Below, piece after piece: positions 1 to 61,366 of a DNA stretch of 64,000 nt. The position numbers and the translations under genes were made by a program. This stretch comes from Sphingobacteriales bacterium (GTDB lineage: Bacteria > Bacteroidota > Bacteroidia > Chitinophagales > Chitinophagaceae): contig REAR01000069.1 of NCBI GenBank assembly GCA_004295245.1, positions 9,587 to 73,586 on the forward strand. The letters are read 5' to 3'. Numbering within the stretch: the stretch's first letter is position 1; each line of letters begins with the position of its first letter. The notes beneath the pieces were generated by a model. That model was not told the DNA's origin, searched no databases, and saw only the letters and a list, made by a program, of their open reading frames with translations.

Positions 1-3000
1 TTTGCCTCTTACAATTAAACGAGCCGTGTAAGTGCTGTAGTTGTTGTAGAAATGATCTGTATTTAAAAGAGTGGATGTCTCTCCATCACCAAAATCCCAG
101 TAAGAAGAATCATAATCCCTTCCCTTAAATATGAACTTGGTTTGCAGTGGTGCACAAATAGAAATACTATCAATCATATCAAAATCTGCTACCGGTTGTT
201 TAATATAGATAAAATTGTTTTTTATAACAGAATCCCTACAACCGCGGCCATTATCTACCACCAACTTAATAGTATAGCGGGCACTATCACTGGTATAGGT
301 ATGTATTGGGTTCTGTTGTACAGAAGTAGTACCGTCACCAAAATCCCAAAAAAAACTGGTGGGGTTTATTTTTGAGCTATCTGTAAATTGTAAGGGTACA
401 TTAGGGCAATACATAGAATCGGGTACAGAAAACCCCGCTTTTAAATCAGTAATCTTAACGGTATCTATCAGTAATACACTGCTAAAACATCCTGCTGCAT
501 CCTGGGTAAATAGCTGCACCGTATAAGAGCCTGTATCTGCATATGTATGTGTAAAAGGTGGTGCTGTAAATATTTGCTGCTGCCCATCACCAAAAACAAA
601 ACGCCAGTTGGTAATAGCATTGATACCGTCTGTTGTTGAAAGGTCGGTAAATGTTATTGGTTTGTCTTTGCAGGCACCGCCAGTTTGCACAGAGAAGTTC
701 GCATAATTTCCGATAACCGTTAAATAGTTAGTAACTGTTTTGGTACTCACACACCCGTTGCTGTCTGTTATTGTTAAACGCACATCAAATACGCCGTTAA
801 ATGGCAGATTGCCAGTATAAGAGCGACCTGCAATTACAGGCGGAAACCCTCCAATTTGCCATTCATATTGCCGGATGTTTGCCGGGTTACTGGTAATTGC
901 ATTTAATGTAAAAGTATTGGTACGGCAAATTGTTGTTGCTGCTGCAGTAAAATCGGCAATCTCAGCAGATAACGTAACGGTTCTTTGTATGGTATTACTG
1001 CAACTACCATTAGTAACAGTTAATTTTACTATATAGCTACCGTATGCCGGATAGGTAAAATTTGGATTAACAAGGGTAGAAGTAGTATTGCCAGGGTCTC
1101 CAAATTCCCATAAATAAGAAATGGGGCCATAGGCTGCATCTGTTGCACTACTGTCTCTGAAACTTACCTCTAAGGTGGCACTACAATTTACAGTATAATT
1201 AAAACGTGCAACGGGTGGTAAAGAATGTATGAAAGAAGTTTTAGTAGTGGTTACGGCGCAACCATTATTAGTGGCGGTTAAAGAAACAGTATACCGGCCG
1301 GTATCTGCATAGCTATGGGTGGGGTTTTGCAAGTTGCTATTTCCTCCATCACCAAAATTCCACATCCATGCATCGGCCACATTGCTTAAGTCAGTAAAGT
1401 TTACAGCTTGCTGTGCACACACATTTAAAGGCGCCGCACTAAAATCTACTACAGGTACATTACCTGCTCTTACGCCACCCACATAAATAACAGAATCCGT
1501 ACAACCTCCGTTAGTGGTTACTACCAGTTTTACAGTATAATTTCCTTGAGTGTTATATATATGAGAAGGGGTGGGGGATGTACTTGTTGCACCTGCATCT
1601 CCAAAATCCCAGAAATAACTGGCCACTCCATCAACTGCATTTATATTGGCAACAGGTGAAAAATTAAAAGGAACACAACCTTGGGCTGTCATGCCATTTA
1701 TAGTTGGAACAGGACGTGTAATGCGTACAAATTTTAATTTTGTAATAGTGTTACTGCAACCCGCAGCATTGGTAACAGTTAAAGTAACATCAAACTCTCC
1801 CTGTGTGGTATAGGTATGTGCGGGGTTTTGCAAAGTGCTGGTGCCGCCATCACCAAAATTCCAAAGCCAACTAACACCGCCCACTGTTATATCTGTAAAA
1901 TTGGTGGTTAGGTTGGGTCGGCAGGCTATTGTATTTACCGCCGTAAAATCAGGTGTTGGCCGATCAATTACACGGATGCTTTTTGTAATAGAGTCTATAC
2001 AAGTAGCATATTTATTAACCAGTTTAACATTGTATAAACCAGCTGTTGGGTATGTTTTTGTTGGGTTTGCTACGGTGCTGCTACTACCATCTCCAAAACT
2101 CCAGTTATTGGAAGTGGGCACAGGGGCCGATGTGTTTGTAAAACTTGCCGTGGCACCTACGCATATTGTATCTGGCCCGCTGAAATTAGTAGTAATGGCT
2201 GGAAAGCTGATTGTTTTTTGAATATTGGCTGCACAACCAAAACTACTTTGCACATTTAATATAACAGTATAGTTGGTACTTGTTGGGTAGGTGGTTGCAG
2301 GGTCTGTGGCGGTGCTGGTTTGGGCATTCCCCAAATCCCAGTTATAACTTAAAGTGCCGGGCCCACTGGTTTGGTTTAAGAAAGAAACAGCAAATGGCGC
2401 TGAGCAGGATAACGAAGTTTGGTTGTAAGCAAACTGTGGTGTAATACCTGCAATAACACGTATATAACGTTGCAGCTTTAATTCTGTTTGGCAATTATTA
2501 GAGTTGGTTACCCTTAGAGTAACTGTATAAAAACCTGCTGTATTATAAGTGTGATTGGGGTTTTGTTGGTTGCTGGTTTGCCCATCTCCAAAATCCCAGT
2601 CCCATTGGGTAATGCTACCTGCACCTGGGGTAGAGGCATCTGTAAATTGTATAAAGCCCGGCGCACAAACCACGGTTCTGCTGGCACTAAAGTTTACAGT
2701 GGGAGATGCAAATACGGTGATATAGGCTGTTTTTCTTTCACTGGCAGTACCGCTGGCATTGCGGGCAATTAATGTAACGGTGTAAACGCCCGGTGTGTTA
2801 TAAAGGGTACTTGGGTTTTGCAGGTTAGATACCGAGCCGTTTCCAAAGTCCCAGGTCCAACTGGTGGGGGTGTTTGAAGATTGATCTGTAAAAGAAACAT
2901 TTAAAGGAGCGCAACCGCTCAAAGGAGTTCCGGTAAAGTTTGCCACGGGCGCCTGAGCCCATGCACTAATAGTTAATAAAATACCCGTAATAAAGGATAG

Positions 3001-3012
3001 AACAGCTTTCAA
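1..3012 (-). CDS. PKD-repeat cell-surface protein, N-terminal 1004 codons (3' end runs off the left edge of the window)
   Basis: It is absent from the ORF track because no stop codon lies in the window. The minus-strand frame is open from TTG at 3012-3010, with an in-frame TAA upstream at 3054-3052, and no other minus-strand ORF is listed in 1-3338. The N-terminus LKAVLSFITGILLTISAWAQAPVANFTG looks like a signal peptide. About 12 WxFGDG-type PKD motifs recur every ~250 bp, for example WDFGDG encoded at 99-82. Confidence 0.8.
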   Translation of the reverse strand, partial: MKAVLSFITGILLTISAWAQAPVANFTGTPLSGCAPLNVSFTDQSSNTPTSWTWDFGNGSVSNLQNPSTLYNTPGVYTVTLIARNASGTASERKTAYITVFASPTVNFSASRTVVCAPGFIQFTDASTPGAGSITQWDWDFGDGQTSNQQNPNHTYNTAGFYTVTLRVTNSNNCQTELKLQRYIRVIAGITPQFAYNQTSLSCSAPFAVSFLNQTSGPGTLSYNWDLGNAQTSTATDPATTYPTSTNYTVILNVQSSFGCAANIQKTISFPAITTNFSGPDTICVGATASFTNTSAPVPTSNNWSFGDGSSSTVANPTKTYPTAGLYNVKLVNKYATCIDSITKSIRVIDRPTPDFTAVNTIACRPNLTTNFTDITVGGVSWLWNFGDGGTSTLQNPAHTYTTQGEFDVTLTVTNAAGCSNTITKLKFVRITRPVPTINGMTAQGCVPFNFSPVANINAVDGVASYFWDFGDAGATSTSPTPSHIYNTQGNYTVKLVVTTNGGCTDSVIYVGGVRAGNVPVVDFSAAPLNVCAQQAVNFTDLSNVADAWMWNFGDGGNSNLQNPTHSYADTGRYTVSLTATNNGCAVTTTKTSFIHSLPPVARFNYTVNCSATLEVSFRDSSATDAAYGPISYLWEFGDPGNTTSTLVNPNFTYPAYGSYIVKLTVTNGSCSNTIQRTVTLSAEIADFTAAATTICRTNTFTLNAITSNPANIRQYEWQIGGFPPVIAGRSYTGNLPFNGVFDVRLTITDSNGCVSTKTVTNYLTVIGNYANFSVQTGGACKDKPITFTDLSTTDGINAITNWRFVFGDGQQQIFTAPPFTHTYADTGSYTVQLFTQDAAGCFSSVLLIDTVKITDLKAGFSVPDSMYCPNVPLQFTDSSKINPTSFFWDFGDGTTSVQQNPIHTYTSDSARYTIKLVVDNGRGCRDSVIKNNFIYIKQPVADFDMIDSISICAPLQTKFIFKGRDYDSSYWDFGDGETSTLLNTDHFYNNYSTYTARLIVRGK

Positions 3013-3126: not shown

Positions 3127-3330
3127 GATGGCCCAGCATTTTATCCACTAATCAACATCGTTGCGTCGCACACTTCAGCGAAAGAATAAAAGATGGAAAG
3201 TTGGAAAGTCCTGGAGATGCTTACACAAATCACTCAAGTCTTTCCAACTTCTCTTATTGCTGACTTACCGACGTATTGCACAAGTGTGCGACGCAACGGC
3301 TGCTTAATAGTAGTACCAAGGCTGGTTACC
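3127..3330. repeat. Dispersed inverted-repeat element (GCGTCGCAC family), paired arms
   Basis: The left core GTTGCGTCGCACACTT is at 3160-3175 and the right core AAGTGTGCGACGCAAC is at 3282-3297. The right terminal repeat GCTGGTTACC is at 3321-3330, 9 nt from the stop of the upstream gene. There is also an internal GTTGGAAAG/CTTTCCAAC stem. Confidence 0.8.
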
Positions 3331-3338
3331 CAAAATTT

Positions 3339-6300
3339 TTACCGTATTATAGCAATATTGCCAGAGTACAAAAGAACTTGTTGATTTTCACATACTATTT
3401 CTACGGTATATACATACACATCGTTGGGTACGGCCTGTCCTTTGTAATTTCCATTCCATGCTTTTGTGGCATCGTTGGCAGTAAAGTTTCTTTGCTCAAA
3501 GAGGGTTTCTCCCCAGCGGTTAAATACCCGCATAGATTTTATGTTGTATAGGCCTGTGCCTCTTGGGTAAAAAAGGTCGTTATTACCATCTCCGTTAGGC
3601 GAGAAGGTGTTGGGGAAATACACATTGCCATTGTTACAGACCACGTAGATAGTTACCTCATCGGTTGTGGCGCAACCGCCCTCATTAACTGCGGTAATTT
3701 TATAGGTAGTGGTTTGTTTGGGTGTAGCCACCGGGTTAGGGCAGGTAACACAACTTAATCCAACAGCGGGCCGCCACTGGTAATTGCTGGCATCTGCAAT
3801 GGTTGCATTTAATTGTGTATTGGTGCCAACAGAAATGGTTACATCTTTACCCGCATCTGCAATGGGTACGGGATATACCACTACTTGCACATACCCGGTA
3901 TCGTAAAAGCAGCGCATGCTATCGTAGCCAATTACTCGGTAATTGGTGGTTTGTTGTGGTCTTGCCACCGGGTTTTTTGTAAAGGCATTATCTAAACCAA
4001 TTGCCGGAGACCACTCATAGTTTTCTGCATCACCTGCAAACAATTTGAAAGATTCTCCTTTGCATAAGGTATCGCCCGGCCCCACTTGCATTACAAATGG
4101 GTGTTTTACACGTACGAAAACAGAGTCTGTCGCTTCGCATCCAAAGTTTGTTTTTCCGGTTACATAAAACATCATATCTGTAATAGGAGCCGCCATTGTT
4201 ATAGCACAATCTGTACAAGAAAGTGCGGGTGAAGGATACCATGTATAGGTGCTGGCTCCCGTTGCCTGTAACGTAAGCGTTTTGTTTTCACAAATGGTGG
4301 CATTTAGCCCGGCATCAGTTTTGGGTAGCGGATACGCTGTAACTGTTTTGGTGCGGGTAGTTATACAACCTGATAAATTAGTTACGGTAAGAGAAATAGT
4401 ATAGTCACCCTCTTGCTGGTAAGTAATATCTGGCGGATTTTGTAAATCAGAGCTGGTGCCGTTTCCAAAATCCCATAACCAGCTAAGGGTAGTGGTATCA
4501 CTTAATAGGTTATCTCCAAAAATAGTAAGTGTTGCTGGCGCACATGCACCAGAGTCGCCTCTAAGTAGTACTTGGGGGCTGCTAACTATTTTAATGTCGG
4601 TTATTTGTTTCGATGTATCAGTGCAACCAAACACGGAGGTAGCAATGAGTTGTACAGAATATATGCCTGGGGTATTATATACATGCTGTGGATTTTTTTG
4701 ATTGGAGGTATTTCCGTCTCCAAAATTCCAGCTATAAGAAACAATTTGATCATTTGAGGTGGAGTTGTCTGAAAAAACAACAAGCCCCGAATCGCAAAAG
4801 ATTGCTTTACTGGTATTAAAAATAGCCTCCACACCAAATATTCTGATGGTGTCTTTTCCAAGTATAGGCACTTTACATCCCTGCAGATCTTCTAGTATCA
4901 TACGTGGTACATATACACCCATTGATGAGTAGGTGTGTGTTACTATAGAATCAGTACTTAAGTAAGTTTCACCATCATTATAATCCCATATAAACGAGCT
5001 TGTATTTTGAGTAATTGCTTTAAATTGAATGTCGGCTGGTTTACACGCATCTGTTTTATCGTATGTAAATATTCCGGTAGGGCCTTCCACCACAATTTTT
5101 TTAGTAAGCGTATCGGTGCACCCGCCCGGGCTGGTAACTATCAAGCGGGCATAATAGGTACCGGGGTAATTATAGTAATGCTCTGGGTTAGAAAGGGTAG
5201 AACCGGTACCGTCTCCAAAGTTCCAATCAAAATACCTGAAGTATGTAGATTGATTGGTAAATCGTACGATCAATGGCGGACAGGTTCCTACAGAGTCGCT
5301 CATTGTAAAAAGGGCTTTCGGTTCATCAATATTTATGTAAGTGGGTAAAGTAACAGAGTCTTTACAGCCATACCCATCAGTAATTGTAAGCTTTATATCA
5401 TATACTCCATTAGCAAGGTATCTGTGAGTAGTGTTATTTACAGCACCCGTAGCGCCATCACCAAAATCCCAAATAGAACGTATGGAGGGCCCTTGTGAGG
5501 TATTGATAAAACGTACCAGACTGTTTTTACAACTTAAAGTATCGGGGCTAAAAAAACTTGCTTTAGGGTCTGATATATATACATGGTTTGTTTTTTTGAT
5601 GGTATCTGAGCAACCAAATGCATCTGTTATTTTTAATGACACATTATAAAAACCAGGGTTTGAATAGTAATGACTAAAAGGAGGTGTATTAAAAGCTTGT
5701 GTAACCCCATCTCCAAAATTCCACGTCCATGTGCTAATGGCATTTCTTCCATCCGTTAGAGATGAATCGTTGAAATTAATGATGGGCATATTATTATAAC
5801 AAGCCGATTTATTAATTGCTCCGAAGTTTGCAGTGGGGCCGTTTACGGTTATGTAATTTAACTTGGTAATAGTATCTCTGCAACCCAGAATATTAGTGGT
5901 AATAAGTGTTATGCTATAAAGGCCCGCTTTGTTAAACGAAATTTTTGGGTTTCGGGCAGTATCTGTTTTATTGTTATATTTCCACAGATAGTAAACAATA
6001 TTTCTTGAATTATAATTAAACGGCTCAAGTGTCAGAGAATCTCCTTTACAGATACTGGTAGTGCTGGCCGTGAAATCCGGGTTTTCATCAATTATCCGTG
6101 CATAGTATGAGGTGCTATGTGTGCAAGTGTCATTGCTAACTGTTAGCACCACTAAATATGTGCCTGGTGCGGTATATGTATGCACCGGGTTTTTAACGTT
6201 AGAGGTTGTACCATCACCAAAATCCCAAATATGAGAAGTAGCTCCGATAGACCGATCGGTAAAGAAATATTTGAATGGGTTATTACAATTAAAAAGTGCC

Positions 6301-6647
6301 CCAAATTTTGCAACAGGCGGTTTTATGTGTACAAATCTTGGTTTCCTTATAGTATCGGTGCAACCATTATTACTGGCAATTAATGTTATAGTAAAATAAC
6401 CGGTATCTCTATACAGGTGTAATGGGTTACGCGTCGTATCCGCACCCCCATCGCCAAAAAACCAGAAGTAATTAGTACTGTTTGATGAAGATTTGTTAAT
6501 GAATTGTATGGCTGTGGATGCACAGGCATCTTTTGGCATTGCATCAAAATCGGCTACCGGACGTTGCCCTACTTTTACGGCATTTTTATAATAAAGGGTA
6601 TCCGAGCATCCATCTGCTGTGGTATAGGCAAATGCAATATCATACAA
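3339..6647 (-). CDS. PKD-repeat protein with T9SS type-B (gliding-motility-associated) C-terminal domain; C-terminal fragment of a disrupted gene
   Basis: The 1102-aa ORF has many FGDG PKD motifs. Its C-terminus, FPNTFSPNGDGNNDLFYP...VFNRWGETLFE...GNIAIIR, matches the type-B T9SS sorting domain pattern. The listed start is only a TTG inside PGLYDI, so there is no signal peptide and no genuine start. Confidence 0.85.
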   Translation of the reverse strand: MYDIAFAYTTADGCSDTLYYKNAVKVGQRPVADFDAMPKDACASTAIQFINKSSSNSTNYFWFFGDGGADTTRNPLHLYRDTGYFTITLIASNNGCTDTIRKPRFVHIKPPVAKFGALFNCNNPFKYFFTDRSIGATSHIWDFGDGTTSNVKNPVHTYTAPGTYLVVLTVSNDTCTHSTSYYARIIDENPDFTASTTSICKGDSLTLEPFNYNSRNIVYYLWKYNNKTDTARNPKISFNKAGLYSITLITTNILGCRDTITKLNYITVNGPTANFGAINKSACYNNMPIINFNDSSLTDGRNAISTWTWNFGDGVTQAFNTPPFSHYYSNPGFYNVSLKITDAFGCSDTIKKTNHVYISDPKASFFSPDTLSCKNSLVRFINTSQGPSIRSIWDFGDGATGAVNNTTHRYLANGVYDIKLTITDGYGCKDSVTLPTYINIDEPKALFTMSDSVGTCPPLIVRFTNQSTYFRYFDWNFGDGTGSTLSNPEHYYNYPGTYYARLIVTSPGGCTDTLTKKIVVEGPTGIFTYDKTDACKPADIQFKAITQNTSSFIWDYNDGETYLSTDSIVTHTYSSMGVYVPRMILEDLQGCKVPILGKDTIRIFGVEAIFNTSKAIFCDSGLVVFSDNSTSNDQIVSYSWNFGDGNTSNQKNPQHVYNTPGIYSVQLIATSVFGCTDTSKQITDIKIVSSPQVLLRGDSGACAPATLTIFGDNLLSDTTTLSWLWDFGNGTSSDLQNPPDITYQQEGDYTISLTVTNLSGCITTRTKTVTAYPLPKTDAGLNATICENKTLTLQATGASTYTWYPSPALSCTDCAITMAAPITDMMFYVTGKTNFGCEATDSVFVRVKHPFVMQVGPGDTLCKGESFKLFAGDAENYEWSPAIGLDNAFTKNPVARPQQTTNYRVIGYDSMRCFYDTGYVQVVVYPVPIADAGKDVTISVGTNTQLNATIADASNYQWRPAVGLSCVTCPNPVATPKQTTTYKITAVNEGGCATTDEVTIYVVCNNGNVYFPNTFSPNGDGNNDLFYPRGTGLYNIKSMRVFNRWGETLFEQRNFTANDATKAWNGNYKGQAVPNDVYVYTVEIVCENQQVLLYSGNIAIIR

Positions 6648-6650
6648 TCC

Positions 6651-6694
6651 GGGTGTTGTATACGTGTGCGTTGGGTGTTGTATACGTGTGCGTT
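6651..6694. repeat. Perfect 22-bp tandem duplication (2 copies) inside PKD coding sequence
   Basis: GGGTGTTGTATACGTGTGCGTT at 6651-6672 is repeated exactly at 6673-6694. The length is not a multiple of 3. Confidence 0.95.
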
Positions 6695-6908
6695 GGTATG
6701 GCTAAAGTGGAGGTGGTACCATCTCCAAAGTTCCACCAGTAGCTGGTTATAGGTGTTAAAGTATTAATAGCGTAACTCGGTGAAAAATTTAAAGGAGCGC
6801 AACCATTTTTGGGAACATTGTAAAATTCAATTTTTGGTTTAGCAATGGCAATATAATTCTGTTTTCTTATAGAGTCGCTACAGCCGGATGCGTTGGTAAC
6901 TACAAGTT

Positions 6909-8219
6909 TTACGCTAAATGATCCTTCTTTAGTGTAACGCTAAATGATCCTTCTTTAGTGTAAATATGAATTGGATTTTCCAGGTCTGATGAATCACCGT
7001 CTCCAAAATACCATTTATAATTTATGCCGGATGTAGAAATGTTTGTAAACTGTACACTAAAGGGGGCACTGCAGCTATTGGTTGCAGAAGAGTTAAAGCC
7101 CATCACAGGTTTGGGTATAACATTTATAGTTTTTGTTGCGGTATCGCGGCAAGAACCAAAATCGGTTATAAGTTTTATAATATAACTGCCACTGCTAGCG
7201 TAGCTTTTTGAGGCCACAGAGTCTGTCGACGTGTTGCCATCTCCAAAACGCCAAATAAAGTTAGTGTTATATGGTATAGTGGTATTAACAGCTTTAAAAA
7301 TTTCTTTTTCACAAATACTATCCGGTATAATAAACGAAGAACGGGCAATACCAATTAAAATTGAATCAGTTTTTATGAGAGTATCTGCGCATCCGGCATT
7401 ATTCGTAGTTATCAGCTGCACAGTATATTTGCCTGCATTTAAATAAGTGTTTGATGGGTTGGCATTAGTGGAAGTAGTGCCATTTCCAAAATCCCATTTA
7501 TAAGAGAGTATACCTGTGCCGGTACTATTATTGGTAAAGTTTACTACTGCCGGCGGGGAGCACAGATTAGATGTAACAAAAGAAAAATCGGCAACTGCAC
7601 CGCCGTTAATTTTTATATACTTCTGTTTTGAAATTGTTTTTACACAACCCGCTGCATTGGTTACTCTTAAAATAACATTATAGCTGCCTGCCGTTAAATA
7701 AGTATGTACAGGGTTCTTTAAAGTAGAGAGCGTACCATCCCCTAAATCCCATTCCCATTGCACAATATCGCCTTCATTGGCTATGCTCTCATCTGTAAAT
7801 TGTACGTTTAATGGATAACAACCAACGGTATCAGATGCTTTAAAAGAAGGGGTAGGCAGGGCGTTTACAATTATGTATTGTGTTTTAATTATTGAATCGG
7901 CAGTACCTGATGCGTTTTTTACCACTAATTTAATGGTGTACATGCCGGGTGTAAAGTATGTAGTTGATGGGTTTTGTAAGTATGAAACAGTACCGTTGCC
8001 TAAATTCCACTTCCAGTAGTTGGGTTTTCCAATTTCGCCCTCGCGGCTATCCCAAGTAGAGGCATCTTTGAAGCTTACAAATAATGGGGCGCAACCACTT
8101 AATGGGGTAGCTGTAAAGTCTGCTCTTAATTGTGCAGTAAGCCTATTACTTAAACTAATAAAGAACAGCAATACTAATAAGGCACGGGGCACAAAGGCCC
8201 TTTTGGTTTTCATACGCAA
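6909..8219 (-). CDS. PKD-repeat protein, N-terminal fragment of the same disrupted gene (carries the signal peptide)
   Basis: The 436-aa ORF starts MRMKTKRAFVPRALLVLLFFISLSNRLTAQ, a signal peptide, and contains about 5 PKD repeats. It ends at a TAA created inside the second copy of the 26-bp duplication. Confidence 0.85.
   Translation of the reverse strand: MRMKTKRAFVPRALLVLLFFISLSNRLTAQLRADFTATPLSGCAPLFVSFKDASTWDSREGEIGKPNYWKWNLGNGTVSYLQNPSTTYFTPGMYTIKLVVKNASGTADSIIKTQYIIVNALPTPSFKASDTVGCYPLNVQFTDESIANEGDIVQWEWDLGDGTLSTLKNPVHTYLTAGSYNVILRVTNAAGCVKTISKQKYIKINGGAVADFSFVTSNLCSPPAVVNFTNNSTGTGILSYKWDFGNGTTSTNANPSNTYLNAGKYTVQLITTNNAGCADTLIKTDSILIGIARSSFIIPDSICEKEIFKAVNTTIPYNTNFIWRFGDGNTSTDSVASKSYASSGSYIIKLITDFGSCRDTATKTINVIPKPVMGFNSSATNSCSAPFSVQFTNISTSGINYKWYFGDGDSSDLENPIHIYTKEGSFSVTLKKDHLA
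6911..6962. repeat. Perfect 26-bp tandem duplication (2 copies) inside PKD coding sequence
   Basis: ACGCTAAATGATCCTTCTTTAGTGTA at 6911-6936 is repeated exactly at 6937-6962. The length is not a multiple of 3. Confidence 0.95.
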
Positions 8220-9249: not shown

Positions 9250-9300
9250 GGCATTGTTGCAAAGGTCGGCAGCCGTTGCGTCGCACCCTGCAACAGTGGT
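9250..9300. repeat. Dispersed element, solo core of the CACCCT subtype
   Basis: GGCAGCCGTTGCGTCGCACCCTGCAAC at 9268-9294 sits within the stem CATTGTTGCA (9252-9261) / TGCAACAGTG (9289-9298). Its exact reverse complement is at 21444-21470. Confidence 0.8.
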
Positions 9301-14557: not shown

Positions 14558-14663
14558 CCAGCTTTAGAATTATTGATTTGAAATTTCAAATAGGAAACTT
14601 TAAATATCAAATGCTCAAGTGTGCGACGCAAGGATGCCGAATAATGTTATATGGCTGGTTACA
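14553..14663. repeat. Dispersed element (111 bp) with perfect 10-bp terminal inverted repeats and a single core
   Basis: TGTAACCAGC at 14553-14562 pairs with GCTGGTTACA at 14654-14663. The core AAGTGTGCGACGCAAG is at 14618-14633, and the internal perfect palindrome ATTTGAAATTTCAAAT is at 14576-14591. The MATE stop codon TAA (14555-14557) lies inside the left terminal repeat. Confidence 0.85.
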
Positions 14664-14697
14664 TAAAAAAACACCCACATGGTAGCGGGTGTTTTTT
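14664..14697. terminator. Bidirectional terminator between the MATE gene and fba
   Basis: The stem ACACCC/GGGTGT is flanked by an A-run and a T-run. Confidence 0.65.
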
Positions 14698-18262: not shown

Positions 18263-18380
18263 TGTTATCAGCAGTATATCGCTATTCGCCATCGTTGCGT
18301 CGCACACTTCAACATTTGATATTTGAAGTTTCTGATTTGAAATTTCAAATATCAAGTCAAAAATTTTACAGCTGGTTATT
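18263..18380. repeat. Dispersed element with a single core, the same subfamily as 14553-14663 in opposite orientation
   Basis: TGTTATCAGC is at 18263-18272 and GCTGGTTAT at 18371-18379. The core GTTGCGTCGCACACTT is at 18294-18309. An 18-mer identical to that in the other element, TGATTTGAAATTTCAAAT, is at 18333-18350. Confidence 0.85.
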
Positions 18381-21443: not shown

Positions 21444-21470
21444 GTTGCAGGGTGCGACGCAACGGCTGCC
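21444..21470. repeat. Dispersed element, solo core of the CACCCT subtype (reverse orientation)
   Basis: GTTGCAGGGTGCGACGCAACGGCTGCC is the exact reverse complement of 9268-9294. Confidence 0.85.
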
Positions 21471-21497
21471 CAATAGCCTTGCCACCGCCGGCCCCAA

Positions 21498-22429: not shown

Positions 22430-22453
22430 AATGTAGCGAGTTTTATTTTATGA

Positions 22454-22520
22454 AACCAGCCATTGCACTGCCTTCAGCAGCCGTTGCGTCGCACCCTTCA
22501 ACCGAAGTGCGGGGCTGGCC
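22454..22520. repeat. Dispersed element, solo core of the CACCCT subtype
   Basis: CAGCCGTTGCGTCGCACCCTTCA at 22478-22500 has its exact reverse complement at 37143-37165. The outer AACCAGC / GCTGG arms are present. Confidence 0.8.
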
Positions 22521-25636: not shown

Positions 25637-25705
25637 CAGTTGCAGGACGCGTTGCAGTACAAGTGTGCGACGCAAGGATGCTGGGCTGCTTGCTGCCGCT
25701 GGTAC
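25637..25705. repeat. Dispersed element, solo core
   Basis: The core AAGTGTGCGACGCAAG is at 25661-25676 and the terminal GCTGGTAC at 25698-25705. It lies in the divergent region upstream of secA. Confidence 0.75.
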
Positions 25706-36419: not shown

Positions 36420-36688
36420 GACCGAATAAACTCATTGCTAAAAGGGGTACGGTAAGTTAGCTAAAAATAGGTATGTACTCCGGTAAAATAAATGAGTGGT
36501 ATGTAAATATAATTACTGGTTGTATTTCATTTTACGACTGTTATAGAATACAATGACAAAGAAATTGAGCTATAGGTAAATCTTATATATGAGTAAATGT
36601 ATTTACTGAGTTAGGATGATGAGTATTGGCTGAGCCTTTATTCCTATAAAATTAATAAAACGTAGTTTGGTGGGTGCATTTTAAAATT

Positions 36689-36744
36689 TGGTTGAGCATA
36701 TCGGGGTCGAACCGACGACCTTCCCGATTGCCGGTCGGGACGCT
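36689..36744 (-). other. tRNA-derived 3' fragment (anticodon arm to CCA), copy A
   Basis: The minus strand reads AGCGTCCCGACCGGCAATCGGGAAGGTCGTCGGTTCGACCCCGATATGCTCAACCA. The T arm is the same as in tRNA-Ala, the anticodon arm differs, and there is no 5' half. Confidence 0.75.
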
Positions 36745-36760
36745 GTAGTAACAATGCAAT

Positions 36761-36788
36761 AAAAAAACGCACTCAAAAGGTGCGTTTT
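36761..36788 (-). terminator. Terminator hairpin inside repeat unit A
   Basis: The minus strand reads AAAACGCACCTTTTGAGTGCGTTTTTTT, with the stem ACGCAC/GTGCGT followed by a T-run. Confidence 0.6.
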
Positions 36789-36794
36789 AAAATG

Positions 36795-36850
36795 TGGTTG
36801 AGCATATCGGGGTCGAACCGACGACCTTCCCGATTGCCGGTCGGGACGCT
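36795..36850 (-). other. tRNA-derived 3' fragment, copy B
   Basis: This is the same 56-nt sequence as copy A, 106 bp away. Confidence 0.75.
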
Positions 36851-36866
36851 GTAGTAACAATACAAT

Positions 36867-36894
36867 AAAAAAACGCACTCAAAAAGTGCGTTTT
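36867..36894 (-). terminator. Terminator immediately downstream of tRNA-Ala
   Basis: The minus strand reads AAAACGCACTTTTTGAGTGCGTTTTTTT, starting 7 nt after the tRNA CCA end. Confidence 0.7.
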
Positions 36895-36900
36895 AAAATA

Positions 36901-36977
<77 letters not shown>

Positions 36978-37127: not shown

Positions 37128-37190
37128 AAGTAGCTATACTGCTGAAGGGTGCGACGCAACGGCTGTTGCACAAAGTGCAGTGGCTGGTAT
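37128..37190. repeat. Dispersed element, solo core of the CACCCT subtype (reverse orientation)
   Basis: TGAAGGGTGCGACGCAACGGCTG at 37143-37165 is the exact reverse complement of 22478-22500. The terminal GCTGGTAT is at 37183-37190. Confidence 0.8.
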
Positions 37191-43473: not shown

Positions 43474-43642
43474 AAACCGGCGGTAGCAATAATGACGGCA
43501 GTGGTTGCGTCGCACCTGTTAACAGCATATCATTATTCAGCAATATAAATACCGTACAATAAATAAACAATTGGTTGCATAACGTGTTATAGTATAAGTG
43601 TGCGACGCAAGAATGTTGAACACGGTACTATTGCTGATTACA
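43474..43642. repeat. Dispersed element, paired arms
   Basis: The left core GGTTGCGTCGCACCTGT is at 43503-43519 and the right core AAGTGTGCGACGCAAG at 43596-43611. The terminal GCTGATTACA is at 43633-43642. Confidence 0.8.
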
Positions 43643-46683: not shown

Positions 46684-46785
46684 TGTTGCCAGCAGTTGCG
46701 CTTTGTGCAGCATTTGTTGCGTCGCACACTTCAGCTGAAAAGTGCGACGCAACGATGCTATATAGCATTACTACTGCTGGTTACC
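46684..46785. repeat. Dispersed element, compact paired form, between xylB and xylA
   Basis: GCATTTGTTGCGTCGCAC, a 14-nt loop and GTGCGACGCAACGATGC form an approximately 17-bp stem (cores at 46716-46731 and 46738-46752). The outer arms are CCAGCAG / CTGCTGG. The element ends 4 nt from the xylB stop. Confidence 0.85.
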
Positions 46786-49293: not shown

Positions 49294-49300
49294 TTTTTTT

Positions 49301-49494
49301 TGTAGCCAGCTTTGGTGTTTCATAGCAGCAGTGGTTGCGTCGCACACTTGTGCACACTTGTGCAGTGGAATGTTTATGGTCCATGGTATATAGTTAATGA
49401 TATTGCCATGTACCATGCACTATTGCCTATTGGCATCTTGCCGTACAAGTGTGCGACGCAACGATGCCCAATAGTACTACTACTGCTGGCTACA
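49301..49494. repeat. Dispersed element, complete 194-bp copy with perfect 10-bp terminal inverted repeats
   Basis: TGTAGCCAGC at 49301-49310 pairs with GCTGGCTACA at 49485-49494. The cores are at 49334-49349 and 49447-49462. A 10-bp tandem duplication, CACACTTGTG x2, lies at 49342-49361. Confidence 0.9.
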
Positions 49495-53046: not shown

Positions 53047-53220
53047 TGTAACCGGCAGCAGTGCAGGTGGCGGCATTGTTGCGTCGCACACTTGTGCAGT
53101 TGGTAGTTTGTGGTCAATGGTTAATAAACAATAGTAAAAATTTATGAACTATGGTTTATTAACGCGTTACCGTACAAGTGTGCGACGCAACGATGTTGAA
53201 TAGCGTACCAAAGCTGGGTT
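53047..53220. repeat. Dispersed element, paired arms
   Basis: The terminal TGTAACCGGCAG is at 53047-53058. The cores are at 53078-53093 and 53176-53191, and the right end is AGCTGGGTT. Confidence 0.85.
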
Positions 53221-61222: not shown

Positions 61223-61366
61223 TGTAGCCAGCTTCAGTAAGCATAGCATCACCGTTGCGTCGCACACTTCAACTTTAGAACTACTGATTTAAGGTTTGAA
61301 ATTTAAAATTTCAAATGTACAAGTGTGCGACGCAACGATGATGCCCAAAGAACAACTGCTGGTACA
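61223..61366. repeat. Dispersed element, complete 144-bp copy
   Basis: TGTAGCCAGC is at 61223-61232 and GCTGGTACA at 61358-61366. The cores are at 61254-61269 and 61321-61336, and the centre is AT-rich (TTTGAAATTTAAAATTTCAAAT). Confidence 0.9.

Follow-up and report, generated by a model that had tools for sequence, protein, structure and literature searches.

SprB-like type-B cargo proteins of the T9SS, found in Bacteroidota, combine an N-terminal signal peptide with an array of Ig-like (PKD) domains and a C-terminal sorting domain of the TIGR04131/CHU_C type. Surface-protein genes are also found among the slipped-strand contingency loci, in which the reading frame is altered by repeat copy number. 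Genes can be corrupted by assembly as well. Uncurated MAGs are reported to carry local assembly errors that damage genes, and 13 were found in one 1.13-Mb genome, of which one (1/13) fell in a repeat-containing gene (Chen et al., PMC7111523). Overlaps left unmerged at contig boundaries give rise to false tandem duplications (VGP paper, bioRxiv 10.1101/2020.05.22.110833). The locus described here shares features with each of these.

The window, meaning here the whole 64 kb stretch of DNA that was analysed, carries a gene whose product is predicted to be a secreted PKD-repeat surface protein and a T9SS type-B cargo. The likeness to this class extends to the N-terminus (MKTKRAFVPRALLVLLFFISLSNRLTAQ, signal-peptide-like by inspection), the PKD array and the C-terminal TIGR04131 domain. 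The difference is that in the window record the gene is split in two. When the split was repaired, the protein gave 14 PKD_4 matches and a C-terminal CHU_C match, all above the curated cutoffs. The sorting domain scored 53.2 bits with PF13585 (CHU_C; cutoff 27) and 51.8 bits with TIGR04131 (cutoff 35), the latter match covering residues 1011–1101 of the 1,102-aa ORF that makes up the C-terminal part of the split gene. The orthologues have been named 'gliding motility-associated-like protein' by JGI. A preliminary description of this DNA had proposed a T9SS adhesin-like gene of about 1,610 aa, and this was borne out by the finding of five uninterrupted orthologues of 1,608 aa that contain PKD repeats and the CHU_C/TIGR04131 sorting domain.

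The order of genes in the orthologous loci is an AAA_26 (PF13500) family gene, 5-FTHF cyclo-ligase, LpxK, SSB, the PKD gene, a 1,446-aa PKD/T9SS gene and PorP/SprF. SprB-like type-B cargo proteins are usually encoded in a setting of this kind, and a second such gene followed by a PorP/SprF gene is a further likeness to the T9SS type-B cargo of Bacteroidota. In the syntenic locus L120, PF11751 (PorP_SprF) was found two genes downstream of the PKD gene, and the corresponding position in the window falls beyond base 1. The downstream PKD/T9SS gene (1,446 aa in the orthologous locus) and the PorP/SprF gene that follows it suggest a module made up of two cargo genes and PorP/SprF.

In the window, the PKD gene is interrupted by two exact tandem duplications, and these and the other features of the region are listed in Table 1. 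Bases 6651–6672 are repeated at 6673–6694 (22-bp unit GGGTGTTGTATACGTGTGCGTT), with the identity extending a further 2 nt to 6696, and bases 6911–6936 are repeated at 6937–6962 (26-bp unit ACGCTAAATGATCCTTCTTTAGTGTA), with the identity extending 1 nt to 6963. TRF reported a 100% match for both, in agreement with the positions and sequences first given for them. No other exact two-copy tandem of at least 20 bp was found in the 64 kb, with the exception of a 106-bp tRNA-linked array. The expectation for an exact tandem copy of 22 nt arising by chance is about 64,000 × 4^-22, roughly 4e-9, and the duplications are therefore not due to chance. The lesions are 264 nt apart and both lie within 312 bp, and the PKD repeat has a period of 252 nt. 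They had been placed inside one PKD repeat but were found to sit in two consecutive repeats, 5 (aa 418–425) and 6 (aa 498–505), in each case in the NPxHxY...G motif. The two copies of each unit are identical, and the gene otherwise shows no decay and, apart from the positions given below, no further differences from the contig of X1, one of the metagenome runs.

Table 1. Position of the PKD-repeat gene, its fragments, the duplications and neighbouring features in the window
Feature	Coordinates	Strand	Remarks
Whole PKD-repeat surface-protein gene	3339..8213	-	4,875 nt as in the window; 4,827 nt / 1,608 aa when repaired
N-terminal fragment ORF	6909..8213	-	434 aa from ATG (436 from TTG); PKD repeats 1-5, signal-peptide-like N-terminus, without sorting domain
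C-terminal fragment ORF	3339..6647	-	1,102 aa; PKD repeats 6-14 and sorting domain; without signal peptide
T9SS type-B C-terminal sorting domain (TIGR04131 / PF13585 CHU_C)	3345..3617	-	Profile scores above cutoff
26-bp x2 tandem	6911..6962	.	First in coding order; frame +2; leads to TAA 6909-6911
22-bp x2 tandem	6651..6694	.	Second in coding order; frame +1; original frame regained
Candidate 'patch', U1-M-U2 bounded by the inner copies	6673..6936 (264 bp)	.	Carries 6698A and 6705A
Strain-hypervariable core between the lesions	6744..6838	.	X1/X2 short-read contigs end and bubble here
Second large PKD / T9SS gene, downstream neighbour	1..3012	-	Off the window edge; start approximate, from synteny with L120

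The two ORFs into which the gene is divided (6909..8219 and 3339..6647) share frame 0 of the minus strand. With one copy of each unit deleted, they form one uninterrupted reading frame, which has 1,610 codons when counted from the TTG and 1,608 when counted from the ATG at 8213. The earlier calculation that repair of both units fuses two same-frame ORFs was correct. When only the 26-bp copy was deleted a stop was reached at codon 517, and when only the 22-bp copy was deleted a stop was reached at codon 436. In the coding orientation, the TAA at 6909–6911, an out-of-frame stop, comes after the second 26-bp copy. The listed start of the C-terminal ORF (3339..6647) is a TTG inside PGLYDI. The possibility that the second duplication is a second-site suppressor that restores the frame, given that 26+22=48, was considered and rejected because the shifted frame reaches a stop straight after the first duplication. 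For two frameshifting indels, the chance that the summed length is divisible by three is about 1/2. The source record annotates the 434-aa (P0137) and 1,102-aa (P0141) fragments as separate proteins, and both are found in nr. As recorded, the N-terminal fragment would have no sorting domain and the C-terminal fragment would have neither a start codon nor a signal peptide, and it is likely that neither is a real protein.

Close orthologues were reached only by an exact-sequence cluster look-up, which retrieved a 90%-identity cluster containing the five full-length 1,608-aa proteins. The best match outside this cluster in a large protein collection was only 54% identical, and when the repaired protein was used to search the GTDB representative genomes and JGI metagenome contigs, nothing closer than 40–45% identity was found. 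The DNA of the orthologous loci (L120–L124), which come from five other assemblies, was compared with the window. The gene is exactly 4,827 nt in 5/5 and shares 92.5–97.6% nt identity with the window. In each comparison exactly two indels were found over 4.8 kb, namely the extra 26-bp and 22-bp copies, and there were no indels otherwise at up to 7.5% nt divergence. The dN/dS of the orthologues versus the repaired window gene was about 0.10. Together with the uniform length of 4,827 nt, this value indicates that the gene is functional and that its length is conserved in the lineage, and points to strong purifying selection on the gene in all of the relatives. The preliminary description had considered that the two-ORF structure might be shared by orthologues, but none of the five (0/5) shares it. 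No mention of the orthologue accessions was found in the literature.

The copy number of each unit was examined in Logan contigs (k=31) from seven independent metagenome runs (X1–X4 and X6–X8) that cover one or both sites; X9, X10, X30 and X31 have no coverage of the lesion sites. The 22-bp unit is single-copy in all seven (X1–X4, X6–X8) and the 26-bp unit is single-copy in X1–X4 and X6. The nearest relative, X1, shares about 99.97% identity with the window (17 SNPs in 54.7 kb), and over this region of approximately 55 kb no indels separate the two apart from the duplications. The X8 contig is the same as the window, apart from a 22-bp gap. Because the units are shorter than 31 nt and no 31-mer can recur within tandems of this length, the duplications would be kept in Logan contigs if they were present in the reads. 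Among the indexed public runs, none holds all of the sampled junction-spanning words of either lesion. X1 and X2 include no minor junction contigs, and X2 retains small variant bubbles, none of which contains a junction, though contigs drop rare variants. Heterogeneity in copy number, which had been suggested as something to look for, was not seen, as every covering contig in the seven runs and 5/5 of the orthologous loci are single-copy. This, with the absence of the junction words, shows the two-copy state to be private to the window record.

Within the gene, variation among strains is greatest between the lesions. In the 95 bp at 6744–6838, X4 shows 18 differences, and L120 has 31 differences in 6700–6900 versus about 1% elsewhere in the gene. 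Within the 264-bp piece bounded by the inner copies, the two positions 6698A and 6705A differ from X1–X4 and match X7 and X8. Hence 2/17 of the SNPs that distinguish the window from X1 fall in this piece, where about 0.08 would be expected (P ~0.003), and the haplotype is that of X7/X8 within the piece and X1-like on either side of it. Sequencing errors at a low-quality join were considered as the source of the two differences and rejected; the same alleles are present in both X7 and X8, and they are therefore natural variants. The arrangement, which can be written A-U1-[U1-M-U2]-U2-B, and the differing haplotype of its central part are more readily accounted for by a single event that took in the whole piece than by two slippages unrelated to each other.

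The PKD gene also includes a longer mosaic hypervariable tract, at about 5500–6950 with its core at 6744–6838, in which divergence reaches about 15–19% versus about 1% in the flanks. Found among otherwise near-identical strains, this tract is more likely to be a product of recombination or gene conversion within the surface-protein repeat. It is unlikely to be a DGR target because the substitutions are not adenine-specific.

With moderate confidence, we favour a local assembly or patching error in one draft assembly as the source of the duplications. The gene would then really be intact and functional, encoding 1,608 aa, and the extra copies would be absent from the DNA of the organism. Such an error could have occurred if a 264-bp piece covering the strain-variable stretch was joined to its flanks with the overlapping 22- and 26-nt ends left unmerged, and an unmerged join of this type would yield the A-U1-[U1-M-U2]-U2-B structure; the exact software or editing step behind the copies is one that we infer. 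An artefact is favoured because the lesions are private, the site is strain-variable, the copies are exact, there is no other decay, the haplotype is chimeric and all of the relatives are MAGs or metagenome contigs. The contig in the source record, a draft, is 80,105 bp long. In line with the errors in PMC7111523 and the boundary-overlap duplications in 10.1101/2020.05.22.110833, the duplications occur in only one assembly and in a strain-variable region, consist of exact copies and have led to a corrupted gene model in protein databases. They differ from the documented boundary duplications, which are approximately of read length, in measuring only 22–26 nt.

Several observations weigh against an artefact. 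No specific assembler step was matched to overlaps of 22 and 26 nt, and the rest of the window is clean when compared with X1, with no other indels, which indicates that the assembly is accurate outside the lesions. The junction microhomologies, of 2 nt and 1 nt, also exceed what would be found at random paste points (P ~0.05 for a total of at least 3 nt), and this excess slightly favours a real replication or repair event. A cycle or loop in a de Bruijn graph was examined as a specific source of the copies and rejected, as no word recurs at the unit spacing and the single-copy locus shares at most 18 nt with sequence elsewhere in the window. The fact that the single-copy locus has only the 2-nt and 1-nt microhomology also disfavours a loop.

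It is possible, though in our estimate less probable, that the gene was really inactivated, and very recently, in the sequenced strain or population by two frameshifting tandem duplications. The sequence stands in the deposited record with both fragments annotated, and the finding of no other indel discrepancy with X1 in the window is consistent with an assembly that is generally accurate. Junction microhomologies of 2 and 1 nt are expected of slippage or microhomology-mediated switching, and a very recent event would explain why the copies are identical and the gene is not decayed elsewhere. Loss of large surface adhesins is common, and the ORF as recorded is disrupted relative to intact orthologues, as it would be in a pseudogene. 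However, inactivation would require two rare events of the same type within 312 bp, at about 0.03% divergence from a relative with an intact gene. The chance of such proximity is about 1% if the events are distributed uniformly over the compared region and about 11% if they are confined to the gene. The strong purifying selection (dN/dS ~0.10, with no indels up to 7.5% nt divergence) and the absence of both duplications from every other sample also argue against a real inactivation.

If the inactivation were real, the duplications may have arisen in two independent events, with the second neutral once the gene was dead, or in one error-prone repair tract, through two backward slips of the polymerase (26 nt and 22 nt) at the 1-nt and 2-nt microhomologies. 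One repair tract accounts more economically for the structure than two independent events. We nevertheless consider it unlikely that the duplications are real and were produced together, by two backward template switches at 1–2-nt microhomologies during error-prone repair or replication of one tract of about 264 nt. Were this to be the case, the locus would represent a bacterial example, at the scale of base pairs and in a natural population, of a duplication-normal-duplication structure formed via microhomology-mediated template switching, and the event would have been captured before divergence from the intact ancestor had exceeded about 0.03%.

A special form of artefact, in which a 264-bp gap-closing PCR amplicon was pasted together with its primers (a 22-mer and a 26-mer) between ends that already held the primer sites, is improbable. 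The A-U1-[U1-M-U2]-U2-B geometry is exactly as expected for such a paste, 22 and 26 nt are typical primer lengths with the AT-richer unit being the longer one, and primers with these Tm values would be usable (57.4 and 54.0 C; with Mg, 62.5 and 59.0 C). Against this, the Tm gap of 3.4 C is no better matched than in random pairs (P ~0.31), and finishing by PCR would be unlikely for a draft with 80-kb contigs.

The three explanations originally offered were a recent pseudogene, a reversible switch and an assembly artefact; the first and the last survive, with the evidence leaning towards the artefact, and the switch is unsupported. Surface proteins are the usual target of phase variation and two-copy tandem duplications can in principle be precisely lost, but an on/off switch of the surface protein by gain and loss of tandem copies is highly improbable here, as the 22-nt and 26-nt units are each present only twice and form no simple-repeat tract, restoring the gene would take two separate deletions with either alone still leading to a stop (codon 436 or 517), no copy-number heterogeneity was found in the seven runs and five loci, and no indexed run contains the junction words. 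The locus resembles slipped-strand contingency loci in that the frame of a surface-protein gene is altered by repeat copy number, and differs from them in having two lesions, long two-copy units and no population heterogeneity that could be seen. None of the hallmarks of a phase-variable locus, namely a hypermutable tract, copy-number heterogeneity and a toggle that depends on a single change, was found.

The lesions are thus either not real or an ordinary, recent and private knockout, with no sign of a new mechanism. The main value of the finding is for data quality, in that two spurious entries, of 434 and 1,102 aa, stand in the protein databases for one functional gene of 1,608 aa, and the record should carry a flag that marks it as frameshifted or possibly misassembled. 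Real lesions would represent an ordinary, very recent and strain-private loss of a T9SS surface protein, and the only extra interest would be in the occurrence of two microduplications one PKD repeat apart.

Two further types of repeat were found in the window. A REP-like palindromic intergenic motif (core GCGTCGCACACTT / AAGTGTGCGACGC) is present in both orientations, with 14 exact copies of the core. The motif was found at 3156–3176, 3277–3300, near 9269–9289, 14612–14668, 18282–18311, 21449–21476 and 22445–22498, and also near 25659–25683, 37137–37165, 43596–43619, 46716–46757, 49296–49493, 53078–53217, 61247–61343 and 63467. Copies are often arranged in inverted pairs with a spacing of about 100 bp. 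Metagenome contigs break at this motif and the depth there increases 4–10 fold, and the element is therefore multi-copy genome-wide. It may be a terminator or a REP/MITE-like element. The tRNA-linked array, at 36673–36977, consists of 2.5 tandem units of 106 bp that are 95% alike, each of which includes the 3' half of tRNA-Ala(GGC). A complete tRNA was identified using ARAGORN and Rfam in the last unit alone (36901–36977, minus strand). In X1 and X2, the depth over the array is approximately 5–10 times the local background. The array could consist of the remnants of repeated integration at the tRNA, or it could be a tRNA-derived repeat.
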